DNA of 64,000 nt from an uncultured bacterium (GCA_937951895.1 CALFER010000079.1:4050-68049); one strand, 5' to 3'. Positions 5,391-31,810 are shown, numbered from the stretch's first letter. The notes: a model not told the origin generated them from the sequence alone. A program made the numbers and translations.

Positions 5391-7562
5391 ATGAGAAATC
5401 CTTTCTTTCTGTCTGTTGTCTTCATTCTGACGGTTTGCCTGTGCAACTCCCGGTCAGAGTGGACCTGGCTCAACCCGCTGCCCCAGGGGAACGACATCCG
5501 GACCATTCACGGATTCAATGATCATCTCGTCGCGGCAGGAGGTTGCGGGTCCGTGATCGAATGGAACGGGTCGACATGGAGTCACCGGGATCTGCCCGGC
5601 AACCATGCAATCCGGTCGCTGTGGTGCGCGAGTGCCACTGAGTGGTGGGCGGCGACGGAAAAGGCGTCCGTATGGCGGTTCGACGGCAGCACGTGGACTC
5701 AGGTCGTGTTCCCGTATCCGGAAGCCGACATCAACTCGATCTGGGCAGCAGGGGACGGAAGCGTTTGGATGGGCGGTCGACTTCCTTCCGGTTGGCCGGG
5801 GTCACCCGGTATCGCGTTTCATTTCTCGGGGTCTGACTGGACAGTCCACTCGATCGACAACACATACACCATCCATCAAATATGGGGACTGGATACCTCG
5901 CACGTCTATGCCGCGGGTGAAGAGGGCGTGATCAGCATGTTTGACGGACATTCATGGGTCTCGATGCCGACAGGGACCAATCTCTGGCTGCACGGTATCT
6001 GGGGACAATCCCCCATCGATCTGTACACCGCCGGGTTCAATGACGATGGCGAAGCTGGCATTCTGCACTGGGACGGTGTTGCATGGAACGCTGTGCTCGA
6101 GGAAACTTTCAGCTCACTCCAGTTCATTTCCGTCTCCGGTATTCCCGGGACCGGCATGGCTGCCATTTCCCGAAACACAGTCTACACGTACAACGGTTCG
6201 ACTCTCGACACGGTCACGCTGATGAGTAACTTAAACACGATTTGGGGATCCCCCGACGGTTTCGTCACAGGAGGCCCCGACGGGTTTCTCGCATCCGATT
6301 TTTCCGACGAATGGATCGACCTGTCATCCCGTGTCTGTAGTTGGGTCGGGTCGATCGTGACGGGCGACAGCGCCGACATGCTGTTCGGAAGCCTGAACGG
6401 GACGCTCATCCATTGGAACGGAACGAATCTCACATCGATCGATACCGGCATGAATCGCGACATTCTGGACATGTGGGGGACATCGACGACGAATGCCTGG
6501 CTTTTGACGGATATCGGGCGACCAGCCATATACACATGGGACGGAGATCAGGCAGTCCGAAGCTATCAGGGTGATCCACAGGAAGACCTGACCTGCCTGA
6601 CGGGGAATGCATCCGGAGCTGTTTTTGCAGGCGGCGCTTTATACGGCGGACCGGATCCGATCGCTGCTCTGCATCGATGGAATGGCTCGGAATGGAGCAC
6701 GATCGATGCCGCATCCTTCTCGATGATTCTCGATATCTGCAGTCCCGCCCCGGACCAATTGTTTGTGATCGCCCGCTCCAGTGACTCGAACTGCTATCTC
6801 GCTCACTGGTCGGGTGGATCCTGGTCAAGTTGGTTGCTCGAAGATGTCGATCATGCTTATTCGATATGGGGATCCTCCGTGTCCGATGTTTTTATCGGAA
6901 CCGACCATTCCGGGATTTATCATTTCGATGGAACCGCTGTAACAGCCATGCATCCGGGTACGATGGACGATGTGTCATTCAGAATGTTGTCGGGATTCGG
7001 ACCGGATGCCGTGTTCGCTTCGGGTGAAACTCAAACCGGAACCGCCGTGTTGCTCTTCTGGGACGGCACACGATGGTCGGAATGCTCGGGACCCACGGAA
7101 AAACGGATCCTTTCGGTCGGAGGATCGTATCCGGATCATGTTTTTCTGGCGGGGGAATCCGGTGTGATCCTGACTGGATCAAATTCTGTCCCCCCCTATG
7201 ATCACGGCGCCTATCTCGAACTCAACGCGACATTCTTCCGTCCGAACGATCCGTTCACCTGCGCCGTCCGGGCGGTCAACGGCGGCTCGGAACGCACCCT
7301 GGATGCCATCTTGTATGTGGTTCTGGATATCGGCACGGGAGACTATTATTTCTGGCCATCCTGGGCGCACTACCCGCCTTCGATCGACAGCAATCTACTC
7401 AATCTGGCTCCCGGTGAGACCGACCACTTCATTCTCTTCGATTTCATCTGGCCCGAAACCGGAGCGTCCATGAGCAATCTCCGATTCTGGACCATCATGA
7501 CTTCACAGGAGGGGAACCCGATCGGCGACATCGATTGGGTCGAATGGGGATTCGGATTATGA
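5391..7562 (+). CDS. Secreted beta-propeller repeat protein (WTWLNPLPQGN start, W.G..W repeats) with the recurrent C-terminal domain
   Basis: GGAGGT RBS before ATG 5391; signal peptide; repeated IWG....YAAG..G units; C-terminal YYFWPSW...FIWP...LRFW...EWGFG. Confidence 0.75.
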   Translation: MRNPFFLSVVFILTVCLCNSRSEWTWLNPLPQGNDIRTIHGFNDHLVAAGGCGSVIEWNGSTWSHRDLPGNHAIRSLWCASATEWWAATEKASVWRFDGSTWTQVVFPYPEADINSIWAAGDGSVWMGGRLPSGWPGSPGIAFHFSGSDWTVHSIDNTYTIHQIWGLDTSHVYAAGEEGVISMFDGHSWVSMPTGTNLWLHGIWGQSPIDLYTAGFNDDGEAGILHWDGVAWNAVLEETFSSLQFISVSGIPGTGMAAISRNTVYTYNGSTLDTVTLMSNLNTIWGSPDGFVTGGPDGFLASDFSDEWIDLSSRVCSWVGSIVTGDSADMLFGSLNGTLIHWNGTNLTSIDTGMNRDILDMWGTSTTNAWLLTDIGRPAIYTWDGDQAVRSYQGDPQEDLTCLTGNASGAVFAGGALYGGPDPIAALHRWNGSEWSTIDAASFSMILDICSPAPDQLFVIARSSDSNCYLAHWSGGSWSSWLLEDVDHAYSIWGSSVSDVFIGTDHSGIYHFDGTAVTAMHPGTMDDVSFRMLSGFGPDAVFASGETQTGTAVLLFWDGTRWSECSGPTEKRILSVGGSYPDHVFLAGESGVILTGSNSVPPYDHGAYLELNATFFRPNDPFTCAVRAVNGGSERTLDAILYVVLDIGTGDYYFWPSWAHYPPSIDSNLLNLAPGETDHFILFDFIWPETGASMSNLRFWTIMTSQEGNPIGDIDWVEWGFGL

Positions 7563-15533: not shown

Positions 15534-17096
15534 ATGACACTGGCAGGACAGTTTGCGGCATTTGGTCGCGTGTTCGAGAGCAGCGAGCCGATCACGACGG
15601 CGACGCAGAAGGCGCAGGAGATTCACGCCGGGAAAGTCGTCGAGTGGCTGGATCTGACCACACGTCTGATGGAAGCGCCCCGGACGATGGCCAAGGAAGT
15701 CCAGTTCGCTCTGTCGGACGCGCTCGTGAGCACCCGTGCCCTGTATGCCCAGGGAGACGACATCTCGGCATGGCTCGGGCAATGCCGCATCGCCAAAGCC
15801 GCCGAGAAAGTTGCGCCGGGTTCCATTGCCGCACAGCATCTCGCCGCGGCGGCGCGCATGAGCGCCTATCTGTATCGCCTGGATGACGCCGAAAAGTATC
15901 TCCGGCGCATGTACCGCCAGATGACCCGCCCCGAACCTCCGATCGCGACGCAGTACTGGTCCCTCAAAGGCCTTCTGCTCAACATGAATCGACGTTTCAA
16001 GGATGCCATCCCCAATTTTCAGCTCGCCCTCGAGTATCTCCAGCAAACATCCCCGCGCGAAGCCAAATACTGGCTGAGCAACAACCGCGAAGACGTAATC
16101 GCGAACCGGATGCTCCATATTGCGGACTGCTGGCTGAACCTGGGTTGGGATGCGGTCGGCGACGAACGGTTGGAATGTGCGGCGCAGGCCCGGAGAATCA
16201 TCGAGCGTGCGGTGAAGCTTCCGAAACTCGCCGTGGAGCAGTATCTGGCGGGTCTGAATGTGGTCGAACTCAATATCCTCGAAGGCCGGTTCGACGAAGC
16301 GCGGCAGGGAATCGACTATCTGCTCCACCATCAGACGAACTCCCAGAAAGCGGCCGTGCTCCGTCCCGCCGCGTATTTCATGCTGGCCCGACTGGCGGAT
16401 ATCGAAGACGACCATAACGCGATGATCGGACATCTCTCGCGAGCGCTCGCCGAATCCATGGTCTTCCCGAACGCGCTTCAGGAGTTGACCATCGTCGAGG
16501 GTGCAATCGAGTTGATGAAACGTCATTCTTCGGACCGCCAGCGTCTCGCACCCCTGATGGAAGCCATGGTCGTCATGCTCGAAGCCAAGGATTGGTACAC
16601 CGGCCGGGATCACTCGAAATCCGTCGTTCGATATACGCTGACCCTGTGGGACAACTGGCATGGTCGGGTGGATGATCCGGGAATCCGGGATGACCTGTAT
16701 TGGGCGGGCTATCTCCACGATATCGGCAAACTGAGGCTCCCCCGCAGTCTGCTCAACAAGATCGCCCCGCTGTGCGATACGGAATGGACGATGATCCGGC
16801 AGCATCCCACTCACGGAAAGGATATTCTCGAGACGTTCGGCGTTCCCAGAATCGCTCAGTGGGTCAGCGAACATCACCAGAATGCCAGCGGAACGGGATA
16901 CCCGGGCAGCGACCCGGCGTCTCCGATGGGCCTGTGCATCACCATTTCGGACATCCTGGAAGCCGCGACCAATTCGAACCGGAAATACAAGAAACCCAAA
17001 ACCATTCCGCAGGCGTTATCGGAACTCAAGGCGAGCGGGGATCATCGTTATCCGCAGTCTCTGATCGAAACAGCTGAGCGGATGCTGACAGGTTGA
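15534..17096 (+). CDS. TPR-like helical N-terminus fused to an HD-GYP phosphohydrolase domain
   Basis: DWYTGRDHS, LHDIGK, HHQNASGTGYP, SDILEA, NRKYKK motifs in the C-terminal 180 aa. Confidence 0.8.
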   Translation: MTLAGQFAAFGRVFESSEPITTATQKAQEIHAGKVVEWLDLTTRLMEAPRTMAKEVQFALSDALVSTRALYAQGDDISAWLGQCRIAKAAEKVAPGSIAAQHLAAAARMSAYLYRLDDAEKYLRRMYRQMTRPEPPIATQYWSLKGLLLNMNRRFKDAIPNFQLALEYLQQTSPREAKYWLSNNREDVIANRMLHIADCWLNLGWDAVGDERLECAAQARRIIERAVKLPKLAVEQYLAGLNVVELNILEGRFDEARQGIDYLLHHQTNSQKAAVLRPAAYFMLARLADIEDDHNAMIGHLSRALAESMVFPNALQELTIVEGAIELMKRHSSDRQRLAPLMEAMVVMLEAKDWYTGRDHSKSVVRYTLTLWDNWHGRVDDPGIRDDLYWAGYLHDIGKLRLPRSLLNKIAPLCDTEWTMIRQHPTHGKDILETFGVPRIAQWVSEHHQNASGTGYPGSDPASPMGLCITISDILEAATNSNRKYKKPKTIPQALSELKASGDHRYPQSLIETAERMLTG

Positions 17097-17100
17097 TGCC

Positions 17101-18582
17101 ATGAATCGATCGCAGGAAGCCGATTCCGAACGCCGCCAGAAACTGCTTGAAGCCCGGAAACATGTCGAGGAAAATCCGGAGCAGGCGGCATCCTGGATTC
17201 AGCTCGGGCTTCTCCTGTCGCAGTACGGCGACAAGACCGGTGCGGTACGCGCATTCGACAAGGCCCTGACCATCGATCCCGACAACAAATACGCCCGCTC
17301 CCGCCTCGATATGCTCATGACCCATCCCGATGCCGTGAAACAGGTGTCCCGCACCTTCTCATCCACGCCTTCACGCACACACCCCTGGGTCGCCCGGACC
17401 TTCTGGATCATCGCGGCGGTCATTGTCATATCGGTCATCCTGAATGTCTTCATTTTCCAATCCACTCACTCCGTCGTCGTCACCGAAGACAACAATTCGT
17501 TTCCGGTCTTCGCCGCAGAAAACCCCTTTTTCGGCTATTCATCCATTCGCGGCAATCCGATGTATTTTCGAGCCTTTACCGGTGGCAGTTTCCACATCGC
17601 GAAACACCCCGGAGGCACTCCCGAGCTGTTCCGTCCGGATGGGCAACCCAGCCGGGACGACAAAGATAGCCAGTACTGTTTTTCGAGTGATGCGGAGTGG
17701 ATCGCTTTTGTGCGACAGCGCTCGGTCTGCGTCGCGAAACGCGATGGATCGGGATTTCGGATCATTGAAGAGGGCAGCAGTCCGCAATGGTCCCCCACCG
17801 GCAGACAGCTCGCATTCATCGGTTTCGATTCGTCTCAACCCTACAGCGCCTCGAATGCACTCATCCTCATCGATTTCTCCGCCGACAGCCGCCTGCAACT
17901 CGCCGACACGATTTCCGATTCGTTCGCCTGGTCGCCGACCGGGCAGGAAATCGCCTTCGTATCAGAACCCCATGAACGGTCTCCGATGGATGTCATCATG
18001 ATGCAGAGCACCGACGCAGAAGGGGAAGAAACCTCGGACGAAGCCGCCTACGTGACGCCCTGTCGAATCTCGGTCGTCGATGTCATGACCCGCGACATCG
18101 TGGATCTGCCCGAAACCGGCAATCTGCTTTTCCCGGCCTGGCTTCCGGACGGTCGTACGATCCTGTACTTCGTGAGCAGGTCCACCGGTACGGAAATCCA
18201 TGCCGCTGCTCCGGATGGAACGAATACTCGCACGCTCTACGGATCGGGAACCCGGTTTTCGTATCCGGGACCGATCTCCGTCAGCTCCGACGGGAAATGG
18301 TTCGTTTTCGAAGCGCTCGCTGCAGGGGATACCGAATCCGAGACGATCGAGGTACCGGATGCGTATCGGGGCTACACCGGCGCTCCGACCATGGAAACCG
18401 GCGCCATGGATTTTCAGCCCGATCTGTTTGCGGCGCGAGCGGACGGGTCCGACTGTCACCGGTTGATCAACATTCACGACACGAAATCACATCCGCAGTT
18501 TCAGCCCGGCACACACTGGGTCTATTACCACACCATCCCGCTCGGCGGCAAAGTGCAGATCTGGAAAACAAAGGTCAGGTAG
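17101..18582 (+). CDS. TPR + single TM + TolB-like (PD40) beta-propeller protein
   Basis: N-terminal TPR (AASWIQLG...AFDKALTIDP), one hydrophobic segment, repeats WSPTG/FSSD/WLPDG/SSDG. Confidence 0.75.
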   Translation: MNRSQEADSERRQKLLEARKHVEENPEQAASWIQLGLLLSQYGDKTGAVRAFDKALTIDPDNKYARSRLDMLMTHPDAVKQVSRTFSSTPSRTHPWVARTFWIIAAVIVISVILNVFIFQSTHSVVVTEDNNSFPVFAAENPFFGYSSIRGNPMYFRAFTGGSFHIAKHPGGTPELFRPDGQPSRDDKDSQYCFSSDAEWIAFVRQRSVCVAKRDGSGFRIIEEGSSPQWSPTGRQLAFIGFDSSQPYSASNALILIDFSADSRLQLADTISDSFAWSPTGQEIAFVSEPHERSPMDVIMMQSTDAEGEETSDEAAYVTPCRISVVDVMTRDIVDLPETGNLLFPAWLPDGRTILYFVSRSTGTEIHAAAPDGTNTRTLYGSGTRFSYPGPISVSSDGKWFVFEALAAGDTESETIEVPDAYRGYTGAPTMETGAMDFQPDLFAARADGSDCHRLINIHDTKSHPQFQPGTHWVYYHTIPLGGKVQIWKTKVR

Positions 18583-19579
18583 CCGGCGGGTATTGGGCGA
18601 GCGCTTTCCCGAGTTCGTCCCGGATCGAGTCCCGGAGACGTTCGGGTTCCAGCACCTCGATCGCGGACCCGAACCCGAGAGCCCATTTCTGGAGATCGAA
18701 TTCGCCTCCACAGAAGAATGCCACCTCGATCGACCCGTCCGGAAGATCCGTGAGTGTCTGGGAGGGGTGGAATGACCGCTCCCGGATGAACGGGACCATC
18801 CATGCCGCGAACCGAAATCGGCTTGCAAAGGGCTTCTGGTCGTAAATCCCGAAACTCTGATCGGCCCGGGACTGGATCGCGGAGGAGTCATGCGTCGACG
18901 CCGTTTCACCCTCGACGATCGTGATCTGTCTGAATCGTTCGACAGCCAGCGTCCAGTAGTCGCGAAATCCTCTCACGTATGCGCGGATGTAAATGCCGCC
19001 GTCATAGAAAAACAGTTTGACCGGTTCGATCTTGAGAGTCAGGAGGCGCCCGCTCTGAAATGACTGATAGTGGACCCGCAGGACCCGTCGGGTGAGAATC
19101 GATTCGGTGAAAAAGCCGATTGTCTGCCGATGCTTCCGGTAGTCTTTGGTGACTTTTTCCTGGCATTGGAACACATCGAGCAGGGAGTTGATGCCTGTCG
19201 AGACATCGGTGTGGAGTGCGAGCCGCATTTTGGTGAATGCCCGCTCGAGTTGCTCGTGAAACGGCAGTCCGGAGCGATCCGGGATGAGACTGCTGAAGAA
19301 TCGGAGCGCCAGAATGTCCTCCATCCCGAACGTGACCTGCGGCAGAGATGGTTGGTGGTCGGGTGAGATGAACCGGTACCGTTTCCGTCGGCGGTCATCG
19401 GGAACCGGTTCCGCAGTGATCGGGAAGTACAGCGACAGAATGGTCAGATGCCGCTGCACGGTCCGGTCGCTCAGGGACGTCCGCCCGGCGATCTCCCTGA
19501 CCGACAGGCCCAGGGCTGTTTCGAGAAGCTGTTTGAGTATCAGAACGGTATGTTCGAGTTGAAAACCGCGATTGTTCAT
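18575..19579 (-). CDS. WYL-domain transcriptional regulator (wHTH-WYL-WCX)
   Basis: HTH LSVREIAGRTSLSDRTVQRHL; Y.S...R.L.IEP..L.FYDGGIYIRAY...LAVERF; WCX-like WALGFGSAIEVLEPERLR. Confidence 0.9.
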   Translation of the reverse strand: MNNRGFQLEHTVLILKQLLETALGLSVREIAGRTSLSDRTVQRHLTILSLYFPITAEPVPDDRRRKRYRFISPDHQPSLPQVTFGMEDILALRFFSSLIPDRSGLPFHEQLERAFTKMRLALHTDVSTGINSLLDVFQCQEKVTKDYRKHRQTIGFFTESILTRRVLRVHYQSFQSGRLLTLKIEPVKLFFYDGGIYIRAYVRGFRDYWTLAVERFRQITIVEGETASTHDSSAIQSRADQSFGIYDQKPFASRFRFAAWMVPFIRERSFHPSQTLTDLPDGSIEVAFFCGGEFDLQKWALGFGSAIEVLEPERLRDSIRDELGKALAQYPPAT

Positions 19580-19616
19580 CGATCCGCCATTTCCTTCCTT
19601 GAAAAAAATGTGTCAT

Positions 19617-19632
19617 GTCGCGAATCCGCGAC
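19617..19632. promoter_or_regulatory. Palindrome GTCGCG-aatc-CGCGAC in the divergent WYL/ClpP-like intergenic region; candidate operator
   Basis: Perfect 6-bp inverted repeat with a 4-nt spacer in a 102-bp intergenic region. Confidence 0.4.
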
Positions 19633-19681
19633 CAGCGATGACGCGATTCCTTGTTCGAATCATAGCAGGGAGGGTTACGGC

Positions 19682-20263
19682 ATGTATAGTCATTCAGCGG
19701 AACACATGGACAGCCTCGAAACGTACGGTGTGATCGGTCTGTGGGGGGTGCTCACGGAAGAAGCCGCCGCGAACATCGCCGAGTCGATCGTGCGGATCAA
19801 CCGAAAGCGGTGTCACGACTGCATTCAGATGATCATCTCCTCACCCGGCGGATCGCTCATGGGCGCGTTCGGGATCGTCGACCTGATCGACTGGTCGAAA
19901 CTGCCCGTCTTCACGACCGGTCTCGGGCTGGTCGCTTCGGCCGCCCTGACCATCTTCAGTTCGGGTGCCTCGGGACATCGCGTGCTCCTGCCCAACACAT
20001 CGGTCCTCTCACACCGGTTCTCAACCACCATCTCCGGAAACCACGCCCAGATTCTCGCGGATCGAAAGCACCAGGACATTCTCCACGATCGTCTGGTACG
20101 CCATGTCATCGCGCATTCGAAACTGAAGACCTGCGAACAGGTGGAAGCACTTGTTCTGCGGGAAGTCGACACGTGGCTGACGGCGGAGGAAGCGGTCGAG
20201 ATGGGGTTTGCCGATGAGGTGTACGGCACTGCCGGGCAGAAAGGAGAGCTGCACGATGAGTGA
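19682..20263 (+). CDS. ClpP-like (S14) serine protease, divergent paralogue
   Basis: GGGAGG RBS before ATG 19682; SSPGGS, GLVASAA (catalytic Ser), SHRF (His), DTWLTAEEAVEMGFADEV (Asp). Confidence 0.88.
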   Translation: MYSHSAEHMDSLETYGVIGLWGVLTEEAAANIAESIVRINRKRCHDCIQMIISSPGGSLMGAFGIVDLIDWSKLPVFTTGLGLVASAALTIFSSGASGHRVLLPNTSVLSHRFSTTISGNHAQILADRKHQDILHDRLVRHVIAHSKLKTCEQVEALVLREVDTWLTAEEAVEMGFADEVYGTAGQKGELHDE

Positions 20264-21848
20264 TGGTGAAATCCGGTATCAGCTCGAGTATCCCCAGACA
20301 AAACTCAATCAGGTCATTCTGCCGGACGAGATGATCCGGCGGACGATGAACCTGATCGATCAGTACGATTCCATGATCGATGCCCGCACACGTCTCGGGC
20401 TTCCCGACGCGATCGATTATGGCCGGGCGACGGTCATTCTGTTTGAAGGCCCATCCGGAGCCGGGAAAACGATGTTTGCCCGCGCCATCAGCAACCATCT
20501 GCAGAAACCGCTCGTAACACCCCGACTCTCACAGAGCGGCAGCTCGGGTACGGGCGTGCTGCATGCGACGGAGAGCATCGAAAGCTTCTTCGCGGAAGTC
20601 GAGCGTCGGGGAGGGATCGCGTTGATTGACGAATGCGAGGAACTCTGCTCGATCGAAAGCGCGCATACGAGTGACTTTCTCAGAGCGGTCGAGAAACATG
20701 AAATCATCGTGCTGATGACCACCTCGCACGGCAATCTGATCGATCCGGCCATGGAGCGGAGAATCTCGCTGAGACTGACGTTCAGTTTTCCGTCGGCGGC
20801 TGAACGTGAAGCGATCTGGAAGAGCATGATCACGCCGAACATCCGCATGTCGGATGACCTGGATTTTCATATCGTTTCGAAGCTCTATCCCACGACCGGC
20901 GGCAAGATCAAAAACGCTTTCATGTATGCGCTCAACCTGGCCATTCAAAGGGATCCGGAGCATGTCGTTCTGTCGATGAGCGACATCGAGGAAGCCTTTG
21001 CGGCAACGGAGCTCTGCCCTTGGACCGAACGCGGCGTGCGCCGTCTGATCAAACTCGATCATCGCTGGCCGTCGTTCGTCTCGTCCGAACGCGTCCGGTT
21101 GAAAGCGGACGAGCTCGCGGAAAAAATCCGGAGATGGCCGGAGATCGTCGGGCGCGTGATACCGGAGCGCGGGATGGAACCTCACGGCCCGAAAATTCTC
21201 GTCACAGGACGAAACCGCGAAACCTCGCTGCGCGTCGCCTGCTATCTCGCCGCCAGCCTCAGCCCCGTCGCCTGCACGATCAACATCGCATCGATCCGGG
21301 AACAGTTCGGGCGGTTCGGATTCGATCTGTACAGCGGTCAGATCGACACGCTGCTGACCAACCACCGAGCGGCCGGAAATCCGGTGCTGGTAGAAGCATC
21401 TGAACTGCTGCTCGGCAAACAGCTCCCGCCCCCATCCGACTCCGGAGCGTTTGAACTCACCTTGCTCAGAATCCTGCTCGAACATCCCCACACCGTCATC
21501 TTCGTCTCGTCGCTCCCGCGCCGGCTCATCTCCGATCAACTGGCCGGACTGACCGACGTCATCGATGTGGATATTCAAGACACGGAGGATACGGCCATGT
21601 TCTGGAGCGGGATTCTCGATCATGCCCGGATCACATATGACCGCGAACTGCCGGAAACTCTCGCGCGGCAATTCGATTTCAAGCTCGATGACATCCGCCG
21701 GATCGTGCTCGAAATCCTGTGGCACCGCCCGAATCTCCTCACGGGAGAACCGATGACCGAGCAGGATGTCCGCGATGTGCTGACGGGGTTTCTGTCGCGG
21801 GATCGTCTCCGCAGCGAGATTCTATTTACGAAGATCGATCGGCCCTGA
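20256..21848 (+). CDS. AAA+ ATPase with one intact and one degenerate AAA module
   Basis: AAAGGAG RBS; ATG 20256 overlaps the protease end; Walker A GPSGAGKT, Walker B IALIDE, Arg finger MERRI; the second module has GRNRETS in place of Walker A. Confidence 0.85.
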   Translation: MSDGEIRYQLEYPQTKLNQVILPDEMIRRTMNLIDQYDSMIDARTRLGLPDAIDYGRATVILFEGPSGAGKTMFARAISNHLQKPLVTPRLSQSGSSGTGVLHATESIESFFAEVERRGGIALIDECEELCSIESAHTSDFLRAVEKHEIIVLMTTSHGNLIDPAMERRISLRLTFSFPSAAEREAIWKSMITPNIRMSDDLDFHIVSKLYPTTGGKIKNAFMYALNLAIQRDPEHVVLSMSDIEEAFAATELCPWTERGVRRLIKLDHRWPSFVSSERVRLKADELAEKIRRWPEIVGRVIPERGMEPHGPKILVTGRNRETSLRVACYLAASLSPVACTINIASIREQFGRFGFDLYSGQIDTLLTNHRAAGNPVLVEASELLLGKQLPPPSDSGAFELTLLRILLEHPHTVIFVSSLPRRLISDQLAGLTDVIDVDIQDTEDTAMFWSGILDHARITYDRELPETLARQFDFKLDDIRRIVLEILWHRPNLLTGEPMTEQDVRDVLTGFLSRDRLRSEILFTKIDRP

Positions 21849-21896
21849 GGCCCGCATCGCTGGATTTCCGACGCCGGATCGATTAGGGTAACCGGG

Positions 21897-22595
21897 ATGA
21901 AATCGCTCCCGACCCGCAACCGGGCTGCGCTGATCCCGGCCCTGCTTCTTCCCGGCTTCGCCTCGCTGTTCTATTTCATTCTCATTCCGGAATCCTCCGC
22001 CGCCCGAATCATCTATGGCACGACAAAACTGTTCACGCTGCTCTGGCCCATTCTCGCAATCCGTTTCCTGCTCGCACCCGCATCCATTCCCCGCCTGAAA
22101 TCCTCCTGGAAGGGTGACCGCCGCGATGTCCTCGCGGGAATGACCGCGGGCGTGCTCATGGCCCTGACCATCCTCGCCGCCTTCCTGTCTCCCGCCGGCA
22201 GCCCCGTAATCGGAGCAACCGATCTGATCCGCCGCAAAGCCGCGCTCCTGGGCATGCTCGACGCATACATCCCCACCGCTCTCGTCATGTCGCTGATCCA
22301 TTCAGCCGTCGAGGAATACTACTGGCGATGGTTCGTATTCGAATGCGCTCGCAGTCAGATGCCGACACGAGCCGCACATCTGATCGCCGGGCTGGCGTTC
22401 GCGTTCCACCATATCGTCGTCACGATCGTCTACTTCGGCCCGGTCTTCGGACTCCTCTTCGGCCTTGCGGTCGGCTTCGCCGGAATGATCTGGAGCGTCA
22501 TGTACCAGTTGAGGGGATCGCTGATCTCCCCCTGGATCGCCCATGTATGCTGTGACCTGGCCATCTTCGCGATCGGGTACCATCTGATAGTCTGA
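21897..22595 (+). CDS. CPBP (CAAX/Abi) intramembrane glutamic protease
   Basis: Multiple TM segments; EEYYWR, FAFHH, AHVCCD motifs. Confidence 0.88.
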   Translation: MKSLPTRNRAALIPALLLPGFASLFYFILIPESSAARIIYGTTKLFTLLWPILAIRFLLAPASIPRLKSSWKGDRRDVLAGMTAGVLMALTILAAFLSPAGSPVIGATDLIRRKAALLGMLDAYIPTALVMSLIHSAVEEYYWRWFVFECARSQMPTRAAHLIAGLAFAFHHIVVTIVYFGPVFGLLFGLAVGFAGMIWSVMYQLRGSLISPWIAHVCCDLAIFAIGYHLIV

Positions 22596-22617
22596 CCGCA
22601 CCGGATGGATGTCGGTG

Positions 22618-24387
22618 TCAGCGATACTCCCAGGGAATCGCCTGCACGGTTCCGAACAGATCGAATGTGCCGCGCGTGAACGAAGCACCGTAAAAGTACA
22701 ATCCGGACGCAGATCCCGTGCCGGACGGCCAGTCGAACTCCAGAACCGTTTCCTCGGCGGATTCCAGCGCTCCGAGATCATAGGATTTGTTCCCCAGACC
22801 CTGCGCAATCGGAATCCAGTCCGGCCAGCTCCAGAAATTGCCATAGACATCGAGAAGGATGTAGGCGTCCAGTTCGATCCGGGTCGATGTCGAATTGCCG
22901 AGTGTCATGTGGAGGAAAAAGCGATCACCGGCGGCGAGGATCGGATCGTCGAGCATCAGGGTGAGGCCGTCGGAGGGGACCGTCGGAGGCGGAGTGGGTG
23001 TCGGCGAAGGAGGCAGGGTGAACGTCGGGGATGGTTCGGGCGTGTCGGTCGGCCGCATGGTCGCAGTCGGTGTGCGGGTCGCGGATGGAGTCGGCGTCGG
23101 TGTTCGGGTCGGAGTGATCGTCGGCGGGGGAGCGGTCGCAGTCGGTGTTCGAGTCGGAGTCTCTGTCGGAACCGGTGTGTGTGTTCGTGTCGGGGAGGAC
23201 GTCGGTGTATGGGTTGCGGTGAATGTGGGTGTCGGTGTTCGGCTCGGCGTCATGGTCGGCGGAGGCGGAGTCGGAGTTACCGTGGGCGTACCGGTCGGCG
23301 TATCGGTCGGGATCGGTGACGAGGTTGGAGATGCGGACGAAGTCGGCGACACAGTCGCCGACGGAGTTTCAGTCGGGGGGGGTGTGAGAGACGGCGTGAA
23401 CGTCGGTGACGGAGTGAACGACGAGATCGGTTCGGTGGATTTGAACACCGAGCCATTCGGGTAGGCCCCGGCCATCAGATAATGATCGGATGTCTCGATC
23501 AGCGATGTGACATACACCGCTCCGGAAAGTTGAGCGGTATTGATCCAGGTATCGCCGTGATCGGTCGACCGGAAGACATCTCCGACTGACCCGGTTGCGG
23601 CATACAAGGCTCCGTCGCTCCCCTCCAGCAGTTTGAAGAGGATATCCGCCCCCGACAGAGAGCCTCCGGTCATCCATGTCTGACCCGAATCGGTCGATTT
23701 GAAGACCACCGCATCCGGATTCGTCGCGGCATACAGCGCGCCGTCAGATCCCATGAGGAGATCGCGGACCTCCTCGGCATCCGTCAGTTCCGATGCGACA
23801 GACCAACTTGCGCCGGAATCGGTCGAGTGATGCACGTCCCCGTTGGGACCGCTCCCGGTAAAAAAGACCCCCGGAGATGGCTCGATCATGCAGAAAACAT
23901 TTTCAGCCGCGGGAAGCTGCATGGGAGGTGATATCCACTGGGGTGGTGCGAGCGACAGGTCGTATGCGTAGATGTTTCCGCCGGATCCGGTCGTCGCATA
24001 GATTCGGTTGTCGGTCCCCCGGAGCAGTTCGTAGATGGTTGTCCCGACTGTTCCGCCCGTGTAGAGCCACAAAGTGCCCGAGTTGGTGCTGCGATAGACG
24101 TCGGCGCCGGAATTGATCCCGGCGTACAGGATGTTGTTGTGCTCGATGATGCTCATCGCCTCGATCGCACCGGCGATGTTGCCCGTGTTTGACCAGGCTG
24201 CGCCGCCGTCGGTCGACTTGAAGACATCGCCATTGGGCGAGGTTCCCGCAAAAACAGTTCCGGCTGGATTCTGGTAGATGGAGTACACCCATCCGGCATT
24301 CAGAAGATCACCGGTCTCGGCCCAATCCCAGGCATCGGCCTCCAGGGGGAGCAGGAGGATCAACAAAGCGATCGTCAACGTTTTCAT
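22618..24387 (-). CDS. Secreted BNR/Asp-box beta-propeller protein with long Pro/Thr linker and the recurrent C-terminal domain
   Basis: Signal peptide; repeats VFKSTDGG..W / YRSTNSG..W; about 120 aa of TPT; C-terminal [12 protein letters not shown]...FDWP...GLYFYGA...WEY. Confidence 0.8.
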
Positions 24388-24507: not shown

Positions 24508-25383
24508 TCAGTGAAGAGGATCGGGGTAACTGATCGCCTGCTCGAACAGAAAAGGTGCGACGGACTGGAGTTGCACCCAGCCCACGCTCAGGTTGTATTT
24601 CCCGTTTTTCTCGACGAACTTGCCGACCAATCGGGTCAACTCGGCGAGCATGCGCCATTTCATCTTCAGGCTCTTCAGATCAGACGCCGGTTTGAACAAC
24701 TGATGCACACCGATCAGAAAGCCCTCGGGAGCCGTTTTGAGGGACTGGATACTTTCGTCGAGGTGATGGGAGAGATTCAGAAACTGACCGTTAACCAGAA
24801 AAATGATTTCATAGAGATTTTCAAGCGCACAGGAAATCTCATGGTGAAAGTAAAAAATATTCTGTTCATCCCGGATCTCGGCCAGATCTTCCACTACCGA
24901 TGTCGTTTCAGCGAAGATCTGGGGAATCACCATTTCCTGATACTCTTTCGGCATCGGATTGATTCGGCTTTTCCATGCTTCGAGCTGCTTCCGGGGATCC
25001 CAGAGAATTTTGCCCTCAAAGAGCGATGCGACGAGCATCGTGCTTTCGAGATGGCGCCTTTTCTCGATCGAACTGATCCGATCGCAGATCGTGTCCTGGC
25101 TGACGTGCCAGACCCTGAATCGAGCGCCGTTTTTGTGAAATGCATCCGTATCGATCGGATTGTTGATGCAGGTCAGTTCCGAACCCATGTCTGCCATGTC
25201 GCGCACGACGCGAATGCGAGTCGACACATCGGGAACGTCCAGACACACCATCATCAGATCGATATCCGATGCCGCCGTGGCATTGCCACGTGCTCGGGAT
25301 CCGATCAGCATGGCGCTTCGGAACTCGGGGATCCGCTGATATCCCCGGATAACTTCGGAAATTTGTTTCTCGAGCTGATTCAC
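24508..25383 (-). CDS. Pol-beta-superfamily nucleotidyltransferase with helical C-terminal domain
   Basis: GTG 25383 after GGGAGG; IGSRARG...SDIDL signature. Confidence 0.75.
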   Translation of the reverse strand: MNQLEKQISEVIRGYQRIPEFRSAMLIGSRARGNATAASDIDLMMVCLDVPDVSTRIRVVRDMADMGSELTCINNPIDTDAFHKNGARFRVWHVSQDTICDRISSIEKRRHLESTMLVASLFEGKILWDPRKQLEAWKSRINPMPKEYQEMVIPQIFAETTSVVEDLAEIRDEQNIFYFHHEISCALENLYEIIFLVNGQFLNLSHHLDESIQSLKTAPEGFLIGVHQLFKPASDLKSLKMKWRMLAELTRLVGKFVEKNGKYNLSVGWVQLQSVAPFLFEQAISYPDPLH

Positions 25384-25487
25384 CCGGCATCCTCCCGTCC
25401 CGTCAAACACACGAACGGTCGTTCAAAAGCGTGAGTTTTATATCGGAAAACGGAGATGAATGCAATCGGAATTGTCAGGGAGGACAA

Positions 25488-26353: not shown

Positions 26354-27385
26354 CTACTGATTCCTGTTGATGATATCCATCGTGCGCCATTCCGGATTCT
26401 GTTCGATCGGCAGCGGGCCGGTCTGATCGGTCAGAAAATAGTTGCCTCTCCCGTCAGTGAAAGCGCGTTTGTACGCCGGCATCCAGTATTCCTTCCCCGA
26501 CTGAGGATCGCGGGTTTCCATCTGATCCGTGAGCACCTTGTAGACTTCGGTCTGCATGTCACTCCGCGCCTGACTCCGATTCCGGTTGATCTCGTTGTCC
26601 ACCTGGTTCAGATAGCGAATCGTATCGTTGTACTGCTGTCCTCGCGCCGCGATGGCCGCGGACGCTTTCTGGACCCACACCGGGTCGAGTCGAAAGGATC
26701 GCAGGCAGAGTTCCATTGTGCGTTCGTCTTCGTGCCAGCGGTCTTTGGGGGCGACAAGGCCGAAGCATCCCACGGTGGTCCAGATCAGCCCCTGCATGTC
26801 ATAGATGATCGCATAGATGCGTCCGTACGACGGAACCCCGTTGATCACCGCCTCGAAATTCACATACCCGCACTCCGATCGTGTGGCAACCGCAGGAACC
26901 CATGCCCGCAACTCTGGTGAGGGGTATGCCGGCCCCAGGATGCGCGCGCTTTGAAACTCCTGAGCCGACAACTGTCCGAGCACGATGATCCGGACATAGT
27001 CAGCAACCCCCATATACGGATACTGCCAGCACCCGTTCAGGACCTGGCCGGGCTGAATGTTCAGAATCCCCATGCTGCTCTGATTCGTCACGGCGGGATC
27101 CTGAAAATTGAACCGGGGATACCAGCCGAAGAACGACCGACCATCCGGGCTCGTGACCCGGAATCGGATGTTGGTCTCCACCAGATCGACGACATTCCAA
27201 TCCACGCCGCTCGGAATCATCCCGCCATCCGCCCGCCATCCGCCCGGAATCAGCAGTGTGAACGCGCCCTGATACTGCTCGCGATACGCGCTCAGGGTGA
27301 TGCCATCCGGCACAGGAGCCGGCATCTGGCCCAGAACGGGATCCATTCCCATGAGTCCCACGATCATCCAGAGCCATTTTTTCAT
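26354..27385 (-). CDS. Exported hypothetical protein
   Basis: ATG 27385 overlaps the upstream stop (ATGA); signal peptide [11 protein letters not shown]; no family recognised. Confidence 0.65.
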
Positions 27386-30300
27386 TGTCCCCACCCGAAC
27401 TCCCATGAATCCATCCCGCCGAACAACTCGGACATCCCGGCGTTCGTCATGGCAGCATACCAGAGAATCCCGTCGGCGGAACCTGAAATCTGCGGCCAAT
27501 TGAATACAGGCAATATCACCATTTCCTCGCGTCCTTGATGGAGATCGATCACATACCGGTCAAATGACGTGTAACCGGGGGCGAAGAAATAACTTCCGTA
27601 GACATCCAGCAGCACAAACAACGGCACATCGGAATAGGTCTCATCGGAGGGATTGCACAGGAAAACGGAGCATCCGCAGGGATCCCCCTCCCGGAAGAAA
27701 TGCGCCGGCATCCACAATTCGACACCCAGTTCACCGCAAGCGGGTGTTTCGGTCGGAAGCACGGTCGGTGTGTGTGACGGTTCGGCCGTGGCGGTCGGTT
27801 GGGATGTCGGTGTCATCGACGGTGTCGGCGATCGTGTGGGAGATGGAGTGGATGTGGGTGATGGCGTAAGTGTCGGGGTTCGGGTCGGAGTTGCAGTGGG
27901 TGGCACGGGGGTGGAGGTGGGGGTCGGAGTTCGCGACGGGGTCGGGGTGGGTGTCCGGCTCGGTGTCTGAGTCGGTGTCCGCGTCGGGGTCGCGGTCGCC
28001 GTCGATGTCGGGGTCGGCGGATTGAGAAGCGTCGGATAGTGATATCCGATGTCCACAATACCCACGTCGGGAATCTCGTCGATCCGCGTCGTGAATTCAT
28101 CGAGACACTTCGGGACGATCGTCATACAGATCGAATCAGCGGGCTCGCTACCCGCATCGATGCATGGGCTGAGGGCACGGGCGGTCACATCCAGATAGTA
28201 ATCGCCGTCGGGACCGGAAACGAAATGCGGATCGAGATCGATGTTGCTGTAGCCGGCGCCGGACCATCCTCCCTGGACATCGCTGTATGCGACCGTGATC
28301 GAGCCGGTCCCGGACGATACGCCGAGCACATTCCCCCAGAGAATCGCGTTCAGGATGATCGGTGAACCGGTCAGATTGAGTGCGTAACCTCCGTTATTGG
28401 CAACAGTGATATTGACCAGGGTCGCGATGGTCGATTCGATTCCGTTTCCTCCGTTATTGACCGAAGCGACATTCTGCATCCAGACATCCGCGGTAGTATT
28501 CAGCGCAATGCCGGCTCCGCTGCAATTCGCAACCAGCGTGTTCTCGATTCGAATCTCCTCGGATAGGATCTGATCCAGTCCCTTTGCCGCCGAATGGTCG
28601 AACACGCAATCCGACATCGGCATTGAATGCCCGTAATTCATCACCATCGGATTTCCCGATGCGCCACCGTATCGGATCCTGACTGAGCGAAATTCAGACT
28701 CCTCGCTCGATGAATCACTCAGCACATAGGCCCAATCGCCCGGAGCCGGTGTCGTGGCATTGCCGTCGTTCCAGGTGTCTCCGCCGATTGAATCGTCCTT
28801 CCACGAGGTTATGGAAATCGGCGCGGATGGGTTGCCGATCGCCGACAGATTGCCCAGATTGGTGATCGCACCGCTTTGCATCTTCAGGACGATTCCCGGA
28901 TCGATGGTGAGGGAACTGCCGGAGTCGATGGCAAACCCGGTGGATGCAAATGCAAAGTCGTTGGTCGCGCTCAGATTCCCTGAAATACTGGTCTGCGGCA
29001 GCAGTATGGCATCGATCGCGTTACCGGCTCCTGCGTTGTTTTCGACAGTGCCAAACCCTCGAATCGGATAGCTTCCGCATTGATGGATCTGGTTTCCGGA
29101 AATGATGTTGAGGGGATAAAACACCGTCACGTCGATCCCTGCGCCGATTGTATATGCGATCTGGTTGTTCGAGATTGTGCATGGTGAGAACGTCGAAACG
29201 AGCAACCCCGGTCCACCGGAATACTCGATGATCGAATGCTGGAAGGATGGCGCTACATTCCCCAACAGCACGGATGGGTTTCCGAACGCACCATTGTACC
29301 GGAAAATCCCGTAATCGATGCTCCCGACCCCTCCCGATCCGTAACTCAGCGTGTTCCAATCTCCTGAGGCAGGCGTTGTCGCACTTCCGTCGTGATAGGT
29401 ATCACCCGCGTAATCATCATCCTTCCATGATGTAAACACGATTGGATCGGATGAAGTGCCTGCAATCGACATGGTTCCATCGACCTGAATACTGCCGGAT
29501 TCCATCTTGACGACGACCCCCGGTTCAATGATCATCGTATCCCCGATATTGATGTGGAATCCTTGAGCGGCATAGACATGATCAGCGGGCAGAGTGCCAT
29601 CTATGTCTGTGTTCGGGAGCAGGATTGCGTCGATCGCATTGTCATGCAGGTCGTTTCCGGACAGATTGCCGAAGCCGCGGATCGGATAACTGCCGCAATG
29701 ATGGATGTCATTGTTCTGTATGAGTGTATCCGACAGATAACCGGATATGAACAGACCGCTGCCTCCGATGTGTGCGATTGTGTTGTTGCTGATGTTTCCG
29801 GGGTTCACCAGGGCGAGTTGAACGGCGTTGTTGGCGCAATACTCGATGACACAGTTCTGCATATCGGCCTGAGGACAGGCCAACACAACGGCAGTATTTC
29901 CGTACGCGCCGGCATATCGGACGGTGCAGCTGTTCAGAGTGTTCGGCTGGCTGCCTCCGAAACTGAGATACGACCAGTCACCCGCAGCCGGCGATGTCGA
30001 CGTTCCGTCGTGGTATGTGTCACCGCCCGCAGTGTCATCCTTCCATGATGTAAACACGACTGGATGCCCGGTCGTTCCGGATGTCGACAGCACGCCGCTG
30101 ACCGAAACACTCGCGCCGTTTTCCATTTTAATCACCGCATCCGGGAGTAACTCCAATGTGTCATCCGCCGCGACGCTGAATCCCTGCGTCACAAAAACGA
30201 AGGAGTTCGATGGGTCGATCGTCCCGCTCACATTCGTGTTCGGAATCAGGATCCCATCGATTGCGTTGCCGCTGCCGGTATTGTTCACGATCTCACCGAA

Positions 30301-31566
30301 ACCACGGATCGGATAACTCGCACAGTTCGATATCTGGCAATCTTCGATGACTGTATCGGGATGAAAAGTCGTCAGTGTGATTCCAGAGCTGCCCACATTC
30401 GATATGATGGTGTTGCGGATCACCGATGCCAGCGTGCCGCTTGAGTAAATACCGTAAGACCCGCAGTGTTCGATCGTCGAATTCGTCACGATGGCCGGAA
30501 TTGCCTCAAAAAGCACGGCGATGTTCATTCCATACGCACCGGCGTATCGTACGATGCAATGATTCAGATCCGAATCGACCGAAGTCGATGCGAGGGTGAT
30601 CCCCACCCAGTCACCCGGCCACGGCTGGGTACCCGAGCCATTGTGCCAGGTATCACCGCCATAGGTATCATCGTGAATCGACGTGAACACAATGGGATGT
30701 GCCGTCTCACCCTGCATGGTCATCGTTCCCGACACGGTGATTCCCGACGTGCTCTTGATGACAACTCCGGGTTCGATCGCGAGCGTATCTCCGGAAGCGA
30801 CGCTGAACCCGCTTCCCACATTCAAAAACACGAAATCATTCGACGCAGACATGACTCCCTCGATCGCCCCCTGAGGCAACACGATCCCCTCCACCGCATT
30901 GTTGTTCCCCGTGTTGTTCACGATATTGCCGAAGCCGACGATCGGGTATCCGTTGCAATTCTGGAAATCATTACCCACGATGGATGTGCCGGGAACATAG
31001 TGTTGGAAGTAAACGGCATCGTATCCGGTATTCGAAAATGAATTGTAATCGATCGTCGAAGGGGCGATTTCACCGGTGACGAGAATGGCACGGTGCAGGA
31101 GGTGATTGAACGAGCTGTTTGTGACGGTGACCGGCACACTCAACGTTCGCAGCGCGGCTTCGTTCCCCTGACCGGCATACTCGATGATGCAGTGATCGAA
31201 CACCGAGCCCGTTGACGACCCGTTCAACTGAATATTGACCCAGTCCCCGGCGGATGGACTGCCCTGATTCGACGTGAAGGTGATTGGAAGAAGTTCCGTT
31301 CCCGCCGCCGATAGCGTTCCGTTGATGACGAGTTGATGAAAAGCGCTCAGCCTGACCTGGACGCCGGGATCGATGGTCAGAGTGACACCGGCATTGACTG
31401 TCACTGTCGTGGTCGTGACATACGGACTTCCCATCAGAGTCCAGGTTGTGTCAACCGTGATGCTTCCACCGACCGGAGTTTCCGCCAGTGCGGGTTGAAG
31501 GACTCCGGACAAAATTCCACCCAGGACACACAACACCAATGCGATGTTGGTCGGCATCCCCCTCAT
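27382..31566 (-). CDS. Giant secreted parallel beta-helix repeat protein (about 1390 aa) with Pro/Thr linker and the recurrent C-terminal domain
   Basis: GGAGGAGG RBS before ATG 31566; repeated modules IVFTS..DD..GGDT...G....GDW; SPCIDAG...DIGYHY; C-terminal [12 protein letters not shown]...FNWP...WEFGW. Confidence 0.85.
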
Positions 31567-31810
31567 AAAACCTCCTCCTGATACCATACCGTCCAGGTAA
31601 TCGATCCGACAGGTTCAATCTGTGATTGACGGGTTCCCCACTCCCCTGCAGTCTAAACAAGTCAGGATTTTCGGTCAATAGAACATATCTATCGAAGCAC
31701 GGAGAAGCTTGAACGGAAGTTCCGGCGGTTCACGGGTTTATTTTTTGCCTGTTTTCGAATAGACTCCCTGCAGTATTCAAAGCAGGATACTGGAAAGCCG
31801 CAGGAACCTT

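Follow-up and report, generated by a model that had tools for sequence, protein, structure and literature searches.

What is encoded where a gene for a WYL-family transcription regulator stands head to head with a gene for a ClpP-like peptidase that itself overlaps a gene for an AAA ATPase? The three genes lie between positions 18575 and 21848 of a 64,000-nucleotide stretch of DNA from an uncultured bacterium (GCA_937951895.1 CALFER010000079.1:4050-68049), referred to below as the window, and an original prediction had proposed that they form a new defense or stress-proteolysis system. In a computational follow-up, we found that the peptidase and the ATPase belong to families that occur side by side across metagenomes, usually with a WYL gene, a nuclease gene and defense genes close by. 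Most likely, they represent a widespread, undescribed, horizontally mobile module used against phages or other mobile DNA. More specifically, we give a probability of roughly 55% to the reading that the trio encodes a WYL-induced, dedicated unfoldase-peptidase machine of a conflict or defense module, a function that we infer. The features on which the argument draws are the following.

18575-19579, minus strand: WYL-family transcription regulator (HTH_11, WYL and WCX domains), 334 amino acids (open reading frame [ORF] listing and Pfam)
19580-19681, no strand: divergent intergenic region of 102 bp, presumed to hold the promoters and the operator (sequence reading)
19617-19632, no strand: candidate operator, the 16-bp palindrome GTCGCGAATCCGCGAC (sequence reading)
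19682-20263, plus strand: ClpP-like S14 serine peptidase, 193 amino acids (PF00574)
19937-19939, 20012-20014 and 20168-20170, plus strand: catalytic residues Ser86, His111 and Asp163 of the peptidase (alignment to solved ClpP)
20256-20263, plus strand: 8-nucleotide overlap of the peptidase and ATPase genes, ATGAGTGA (apparent translational coupling, read from the sequence)
20256-21848, plus strand: two-module AAA ATPase, 530 amino acids (PF00004)
20313-21020, plus strand: ATPase module D1, active, classic-clade AAA, residues ~20 to 255 (motif columns)
20448-20471 and 20628-20633, plus strand: Walker A and Walker B (D125, E126) of D1 (motif columns)
21141-21848, plus strand: ATPase module D2, degenerate AAA duplicate (residues ~296 to 515), followed by the C-terminal tail (hhalign and motif tables)
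~21819-21827, plus strand: ILF of the C-terminal hydrophobic-Phe motif of the ATPase (motif tables)

Is the peptidase an intact enzyme, and of what kind? Its gene starts at ATG 19682, 7 nucleotides past AGGGAGGG at 19667-19674, and this start leaves the 102-bp divergent gap to the WYL gene that had been predicted; the start residue is the same in P0008, the homolog from a relative with 93 to 94% identity. The protein matches PF00574 over residues 7 to 182 of its 193 (E value, 4e-28; 99 bits, against a cutoff of 20.2), and Ser86, His111 and Asp163 align with the catalytic residues of solved ClpP. This triad, which had already been recognized as intact, is invariant in all 44 nonredundant relatives. 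The CHDC motif that had been singled out as unusual is present in 2 of the 44 and is lineage specific, so we rejected it as a meaningful motif and give it no weight.

Housekeeping ClpP was rejected on score, the NCBIfam equivalog and subfamily models giving 61.8 bits against a cutoff of 308.6, 85.3 against 249 and 88.8 against 228 (TIGR00493/NF001368). Members of the peptidase subfamily retain the handle region and lack the N-terminal axial loop. At the pocket positions of Escherichia coli ClpP Y60, Y62, F82, I90, M92, F112, L114 and L189, they carry Q, I, W, T, I/L, V, T and E, respectively (loop and pocket were compared with the ClpP reference sequences of E. coli and Bacillus subtilis). The changes of Y60 to Q and F82 to W are found in 44 of 44 relatives and that of I90 to T in 43 of 44, with F112 to V and L114 to T in the main clade. 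The hydrophobic pocket in which ClpP receives IGF loops is thus not kept in the subfamily, its place being taken by remodeled but nearly invariant residues. A phage head-maturation protease (NF045542) was likewise rejected: the score of 58.1 bits falls short of the cutoff of 120, and no phage structural genes lie nearby. Among the 2.9 million viral contigs of IMG/VR, there were 2 weak matches (27 to 28% identity), compared with 341 in metagenomes; the peptidase has no scaffold or capsid fusion, and P0012, a true phage-type protein, looks different. The protease therefore groups neither with housekeeping ClpP nor with prophage head proteases, as predicted. With the ClpP fold and the triad in place, it would be expected to form a chambered Ser-His-Asp peptidase.

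Does the ATPase consist of one active and one dead module? Its gene begins at ATG 20256, 8 nucleotides after AAGGAGA, and the peptidase gene ends with the TGA at 20261 to 20263, which gives the 8-nucleotide overlap already noted in the original prediction; the start residue is the same in P0001, the homolog from the 93 to 94% identical relative. D1 has a Walker A motif (GPSGAGKT), a Walker B motif (DE) and an RR finger, all conserved across 26 family members save for one K-to-R change in Walker A. D2 is homologous to D1 (hhalign, 97.8%; E value, 9e-13; 192 columns), and in the motif tables it no longer has a P-loop, Walker B or Arg fingers. The description as one live and one dead module therefore stands, with the correction that the window protein is an N-terminally shortened form: most homologs are ~750 residues long and carry an N-terminal PF22977 winged-helix domain (E value, 2e-25), which is missing from the window ATPase and from the independent 530-residue protein P0029.

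The nearest solved relatives of D1 are Rix7 and the D1 module of p97/Cdc48, both of the classic clade, and not ClpX or ClpA, in line with what had been read from the sequence. Foldseek aligned the ATPase model to the tandem modules of Rix7/Cdc48 over ~550 to 600 columns (the D2 part of that model being of low confidence), and the protein has two tandem classic-clade AAA modules of the Cdc48/p97/Rix7-like type II. The nearest named family is IetA/IteA, at 62.6 bits against a cutoff of 510 for NF042959 (E value, 3e-17) and 2e-17 for PADLOC IetA, whose models cover only part of D1; the predicted likeness to IetA is borne out to this extent. Identity with IetAS was rejected, on the ATPase score of 62.6 bits against the IteA cutoff of 510 and on the partner, which belongs to family S14 and not S8. 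As anticipated, PADLOC v2 returned no full match: it has no model for the protease, and its matches to the ATPase were weak and of the IetA type.

The C-terminal Phe (F524) is invariant in all 13 sequences of the alignment, and 22 of 26 homologs have a (V/L)LFG tail within the last 3 to 10 residues. In the window's clade, the pocket signature and the ATPase tail change together, a weak signal confounded by phylogeny. Strict adjacency, translational coupling and the invariant, partner-specific surface at the docking-pocket positions suggest that the C-terminal Phe tail is what holds the ATPase to the peptidase, much as IGF loops do for ClpX or HbYX tails for proteasomal ATPases. The nearest genomic relatives outside the family are ATPases of extracellular contractile injection systems (eCIS), at 26 to 32% identity. 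Among them is Pvc15, which in the Photorhabdus injection system helps effector proteins to enter the hollow tube (PMC11495950), and, with this kinship in view, we propose a threading or gating of substrates by the present ATPase.

Two loci bear on the ATPase family as a whole. The full-length protein P0002 (locus L004, 652-9159) is closely related to the ATPase, scoring 538 bits against the family profile, and has no ClpP-like partner. Its gene is preceded by those for a 1,636-residue eCIS_core-domain protein and a kinase-like protein, and RloB is encoded close by; members of the ATPase family evidently work with different partners. On the short contig of a Syntrophaceae metagenome-assembled genome (MAG; L023, 74-3493), a WYL regulator is divergent from a 752-residue AAA ATPase that came up in the scan for the ATPase family, with no ClpP-like gene between them.

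Do the genes of the window occur together elsewhere? Scanning metagenomes with a profile of the ClpP-like subfamily gave 341 confirmed relatives, from sludge, sediment and lake habitats, and the best 80 of the 341 loci (43 to 54% identity) were kept. Exact protein look-ups and the Bacteroidia MAG L007 brought the sample to 84 loci, which form 44 clusters at 90% identity. The full-length ATPase family (profile positions ~14 to 711) adjoins the ClpP-like gene in 77 of the 84, and in the other 7 the contig ends within 615 nucleotides past the peptidase gene. The ATPase gene lies downstream in every pair except that of L002, which is inverted, and the distance from peptidase stop to ATPase start is −20 to +21 nucleotides (25 homologous loci). 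A WYL/WCX gene lies within 2.5 kb of the pair in 26 of 34 informative clusters and is divergent and upstream in 19. The expected co-conservation was thus found for the pair and, in most clusters, for the regulator.

Locus GC content ranges from 36 to 70% across clusters, and the median intercluster identity of the ClpP-like protein is 63%, a combination which suggests that the module spreads horizontally. Its distribution is sporadic and mainly confined to uncultured lineages; when genome contigs were scanned with the ATPase profile, at least one true instance, L007, was among the matches listed. A plasmid addiction module was considered and rejected, since no subfamily member was found on the 72,556 plasmids of PLSDB, which gave only generic ClpP at ~30% identity.

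Variants of the upstream part were also seen. The inverted locus L002 (3996-8588) has two tandem WYL/WCX genes of the PafB/PafC type, followed by the ATPase gene and then the ClpP-like gene, and its contig carries an ArdC-like antirestriction gene, a sign of a mobile element. In L166 (1580-6849), a gene for a 1,529-residue protein with a weak GHKL (HATPase_c_3) match ends 2 nucleotides before the ClpP-like gene; the protein may take the place of the WYL regulator as an alternative component upstream.

What accompanies the pair on its other side? In many loci, the gene right after the ATPase is tightly linked (−16 to +42 nucleotides) and variable in identity. It is of the DUF2779 type (nearby in 11 clusters), a small HD protein (5 clusters), ERCC4, PDDEXK_4, REase-ARP or uncharacterized, and one weak uracil-DNA glycosylase (UDG)-like match was also found. 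DUF2779 is a Cas4-like nuclease fused to an RNase-H-fold 3'-5' exonuclease (PMC13621843, PMC3985635). A conserved core with a swappable nuclease is a pattern typical of conflict systems.

For a view of the wider neighborhood, we took the 150 proteins that flank the pair in 44 representative loci. Pfam matches among them included GmrSD_N (four), PDDEXK_4 (three), ADP-ribosylglycohydrolase and ORF6N (two each), ResIII/EcoEI_R_C/N6_Mtase, RtcB and a Y-family polymerase (IMS), while PADLOC (E value of ≤1e-10) gave ZacB (twice), ZacC, REase_I, HEC-05/06/07, PDC-S05, PDC-S26, SspE, Cas10d and RtcR, with matches for ZacA and ZacB reaching 3e-113 and 6e-172. Type I restriction-modification and McrBC-like genes are also among the neighbors, and in L001 the pair is flanked by a type I methylase/specificity gene pair and by an McrBC-like pair. 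In all, the 150 neighbors matched 105 PADLOC models, compared with 5 for 105 proteins around housekeeping FtsH-type genes. The latter served as the control because a mixed set that contained IetAS, Bil and Dpd loci was unsuitable for the purpose; among the neighbors in that mixed set were IetS models (up to 3e-234) together with Bil and DpdF (Dpd) genes. Apparently genuine IetAS loci (L021, L030, L036 and L039, at about position 6001) were also seen among the genome matches listed for the ATPase profile.

How might the operon be controlled? The regulator passes the Pfam cutoffs for an N-terminal helix-turn-helix domain (HTH_11, 1e-5), a central WYL domain (9e-10) and a C-terminal WCX domain (5e-13), and it aligns over its full length to the solved WYL regulators 9pfq, 8tp8 and PafC (E value, ~1e-10); PafC and a DeoR-family WYL regulator are among its closest solved relatives. 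Within the 102-bp spacer, there is a single weak sigma-70-like match, on the minus strand. The 16-bp palindrome at 19617-19632 is a candidate WYL operator, proposed from the sequence; its core, CGCGAATCCGCG, is kept in the 93% identical relative, in which the spacer as a whole is 96% identical and too close for footprinting. PafBC and DriD are WYL regulators that serve here as analogs, and PafBC senses single-stranded DNA (ssDNA). In BREX and CBASS, the HTH-WYL-WCX regulators BrxR and CapW are divergent from or upstream of their presumed target operons (PMC9122589, PMC9122588). By analogy with BrxR, CapW, PafBC and DriD, the WYL protein probably controls the divergent operon in response to a nucleic acid-derived ligand.

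Taken together, the findings suggest the following working model. The regulator would bind the 102-bp divergent region, and a nucleic acid or nucleotide signal on its WYL/WCX part would alter transcription of the operon. The ClpP-like protein would assemble into a chambered peptidase. The AAA protein would form a double ring like that of Cdc48/Rix7, one tier being live and the other dead; its conserved C-terminal hydrophobic-Phe(-Gly) tail would attach it to the peptidase, to which it would supply substrates or control their entry. Most relatives would complete the module with a winged helix at the N terminus of the ATPase and with a nuclease (DUF2779, HD, ERCC4 or PD-(D/E)XK type) encoded in tight linkage, and the window copy may be a reduced but selectively maintained version of it. 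The biological role would be defense or a stress response. We hold it to be a real prospect, though one at somewhat less than even odds, that a new class of ATP-dependent protease and a new system against phages or other mobile genetic elements built around it are represented here. A new class would mean a ClpP-fold peptidase served by a double-ring AAA ATPase of the Cdc48/IetA/eCIS type that docks by an LFG-type tail, and a new system would mean that the WYL-induced machine degrades phage or host proteins or licenses the attached nuclease effector.

Several observations weigh against this model. Eight of the 34 informative clusters have no WYL gene. In the ATPase family, pore-loop 1 varies from protein to protein and does not show the canonical aromatic-hydrophobic-Gly pattern (GTGVLH in the window, with an aromatic residue in many homologs), which weakens the case for a processive translocase, and the window tail reads ILFT rather than LFG. 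The AlphaFold2 (AF2) monomer of the peptidase was poor, with a predicted local distance difference test score (pLDDT) of 54 from a 5-sequence alignment, and in the AF2 model of the ATPase the pLDDT fell from ~80 in D1 to ~45 in D2. The enrichment of defense genes, 0.70 PADLOC models per neighboring protein versus 0.05 in the control, counts models rather than proteins and compares loci from different taxa. In addition, the genes around the window trio are ordinary chromosomal ones (GH77 [4-alpha-glucanotransferase], HIT, HD, TPR-PD40, CPBP and beta-helix surface proteins); there was no GC anomaly around the trio in the window, no tRNA gene in the window and no integrase gene near the trio, which does not lie in a recognizable defense island. 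The predicted association with defense islands thus applies to the family, whose neighborhoods are rich in defense genes, and not to the window copy.

That copy is also reduced, its ATPase being without the winged-helix domain and the locus without a linked nuclease gene. Compared with the 93 to 94% identical relative, the ratio of nonsynonymous to synonymous substitution rates (dN/dS) was 0.16 for the WYL gene, 0.09 for the peptidase gene and 0.08 for the ATPase gene. These values indicate purifying selection and fall within the range of the flanking genes, implying that all three genes are maintained by selection. The description that suits the window copy best is that of a domesticated or minimal family member.

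Which other explanations compete with the WYL-induced machine? The strongest, although we consider it improbable, is a toxin-antitoxin or abortive infection system with the logic of IetAS, in which an ungated ClpP-like peptidase would be the toxin and the AAA protein the antitoxin or cap, so that a trigger would set the protease free and lead to the death of the infected cell. Among named proteins, the ATPase matches IetA best; in IetAS, the ATPase serves as antitoxin to a toxic protease, according to a passage of PMC13069673 that cites Yamamoto 2009; the peptidase subfamily is without the axial loop that gates ClpP; and both the noncanonical pore-loop 1 and the defense-island context of the family fit such a division of labor. 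Yet the match to IteA, at 63 bits, is remote, the second module and the tail of the ATPase are absent from IetA, and the protease is of another clan.

A somewhat smaller chance attaches to a DNA damage module, in which an ssDNA-sensing WYL regulator of the PafBC/DriD type would induce the pair and, with the nuclease, clear protein obstacles from DNA, such as DNA-protein cross-links or stalled complexes, by analogy with the work of p97/Cdc48 alongside SPRTN or the proteasome in eukaryotes. The solved relatives of the regulator (PafC and a DeoR-family WYL protein), the winged-helix fold of the usual ATPase N-domain, the DNA-processing nature of the third genes (DUF2779, ERCC4, PDDEXK_4, HD and the UDG-like match), the Y-family polymerase among the neighbors and the chromosomal, nonisland context in the window all suit this idea. 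It is countered by the neighborhoods, which are dominated by restriction and defense genes rather than repair genes, by a patchy, GC-independent distribution that points to mobility, and by the window copy, which has neither the winged helix nor the nuclease.

It is decidedly unlikely that the peptidase is an ordinary ClpP paralog that, with a private adaptor ATPase, carries out regulatory proteolysis in a host pathway that has nothing to do with conflict or DNA damage and that its defense neighbors are coincidental. The ordinary surroundings in the window and a purifying selection like that on the flanking genes would be expected of such a paralog, but the protein scores far below every ClpP equivalog cutoff, is sporadic (none on the 72,556 plasmids and at least one, L007, among the genome matches listed), has variable nucleases as third genes and lies in strongly defense-enriched neighborhoods. 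A prophage remnant, consisting of a ClpP-related head-maturation protease and a packaging or assembly ATPase, is effectively refuted, the weak head-maturation match (58 bits) being outweighed by its standing below the cutoff, by the absence of capsid, portal and terminase genes near the trio, by the near absence of the family from viral contigs and by the lack of a scaffold or capsid fusion.

Does the rest of the window add to the WYL-peptidase-ATPase module? One further gene lies close enough to be considered.

21897-22595, plus strand: CPBP/Rce1-like ("Abi"-type) intramembrane protease, a possible lineage-specific third gene (PF02517; E value, 6.5e-12)

It is on the same strand as the ATPase gene and begins 48 nucleotides downstream of it; we looked for a terminator-like site in the gap and found none. 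No CPBP homolog was found in any other locus of the pair, and the gene could be either a third one specific to this lineage or no more than a neighbor. There are no tig, clpX, lon or phage head genes within ~10 kb of the trio, in keeping with the original prediction, no eCIS genes in the window or beside ClpP-like/ATPase pairs, and no Rfam elements in 17000-23000.

About 3 kb from the trio, a minus-strand gene (24508-25410) encodes a 300-residue Pol-beta-type nucleotidyltransferase (PF18765, PF01909) with weak matches to PDC-S09 and PDC-M05A, two candidate families of PADLOC; the gene could be a small one of the toxin-antitoxin or defense-like kind. Two large, secreted-looking proteins, a BNR/sortilin-like propeller (22618-24387, minus strand) and a 1,401-residue beta-helix protein (27382-31587, minus strand), have in common long Pro/Thr-rich linkers and a similar C-terminal segment (…LLDVYG…F…P…W…), which, on its sequence, suggests a sorting or anchoring domain. 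A 398-codon ORF antisense to the ATPase gene (20529-21725, minus strand) most likely arises from the high GC content.

What would be new, and why would it matter? A full-text literature search, in which subscription-only papers were outside the coverage, found no description of a ClpP-like/AAA/WYL module, as the original prediction had claimed for this composition. Two-component ATP-dependent proteases, protease-ATPase defense pairs and WYL-controlled operons are already known; the combination of an S14 peptidase, a classic type II AAA ATPase, a C-terminal tail and a variable nuclease is not. To our knowledge, all ClpP partners belong to the Hsp100/ClpX (HCLR) clade, and classic-clade AAA unfoldases serve proteasomes and FtsH-type metalloproteases. 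If the reading is right, the pairing of a conserved ClpP-fold peptidase and a Cdc48/IetA-like ATPase would add a fourth design to the bacterial degradation machines and would show how docking interfaces come to be reinvented. Phage defense would gain a system built on a protease, in which the regulator and the catalytic core are clear and the nucleases can be swapped, as well as a tractable cousin of IetAS. The family may have been overlooked because it is rich in metagenomes, with no plasmid or phage members found and at least one instance among the genome matches listed.

How does the module compare with known systems? The regulators BrxR and CapW have the same HTH-WYL-WCX set and the same divergent or upstream placement next to BREX and CBASS operons, and a protease-ATPase pair would be a cargo not described for such regulators. 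The eCIS loading ATPases (Pvc15/Afp15) resemble the present ATPase in that the relatives P0002 and P0003 likewise combine PF22977 with AAA. They also pass proteins into a hollow assembly (PMC11495950), a likeness to the role proposed here. They sit, however, among eCIS_core, CIS_TMP and Pvc16 genes, with neither a peptidase partner nor a WYL gene, and the present ATPase does not.

The actinobacterial proteasome offers another parallel. There, a classic-clade unfoldase, Mpa/ARC or the Cdc48-like Cpa, docks by a C-terminal tail on the 20S chamber, and the ssDNA-sensing WYL regulators PafBC are encoded in the proteasome gene neighborhood. Common to both are a classic-clade AAA ATPase, a peptidase that is chambered in the proteasome and predicted to be so here, and WYL genes, with PafC close to the present regulator. 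The proteasome, however, uses a T1 threonine peptidase and Pup, whereas the present peptidase is an S14 serine enzyme without a Pup system, and the present module is found in uncultured, nonactinobacterial lineages with defense-island neighbors.

With ClpXP, ClpAP and ClpCP, the present peptidase has the ClpP fold, the Ser-His-Asp triad and the handle region in common, and the ATPase gene adjoins its gene. Canonical ClpP partners dock through IGF/LGF loops, which the hydrophobic-Phe-Gly tail of the present family recalls; the motif lies in a loop in the canonical Clp ATPases and at the extreme C terminus here. The canonical partner is an HCLR-clade Hsp100/ClpX protein, whereas the present one is a classic-clade Cdc48/Rix7-like type II AAA protein, and the peptidase differs from canonical ClpP in the missing axial N-terminal loop, in Q, W and T at Y60, F82 and I90 and in scores far below the equivalog cutoffs.

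The closest comparison is with IetAS (Gao_Iet), a plasmid toxin-antitoxin and antiphage system whose mechanism is still unknown (PMC13069673). In IetAS, the same source states in the passage that cites Yamamoto 2009, the protease acts as the toxin and the ATPase as the antitoxin. IetAS is likewise a two-gene operon of a protease and a classic-clade AAA ATPase found among defense genes, and IetA is the best named match of the present D1. The IetAS protease, IetS, is S8 subtilisin-like, whereas the present one is S14 ClpP-like and has no IetS match. Furthermore, IetA has neither a second AAA module nor a Phe tail, whereas the present ATPase has a dead module, the tail and usually a winged-helix N-domain, and a WYL regulator and a nuclease are the typical companions that set the present pair apart from IetAS.

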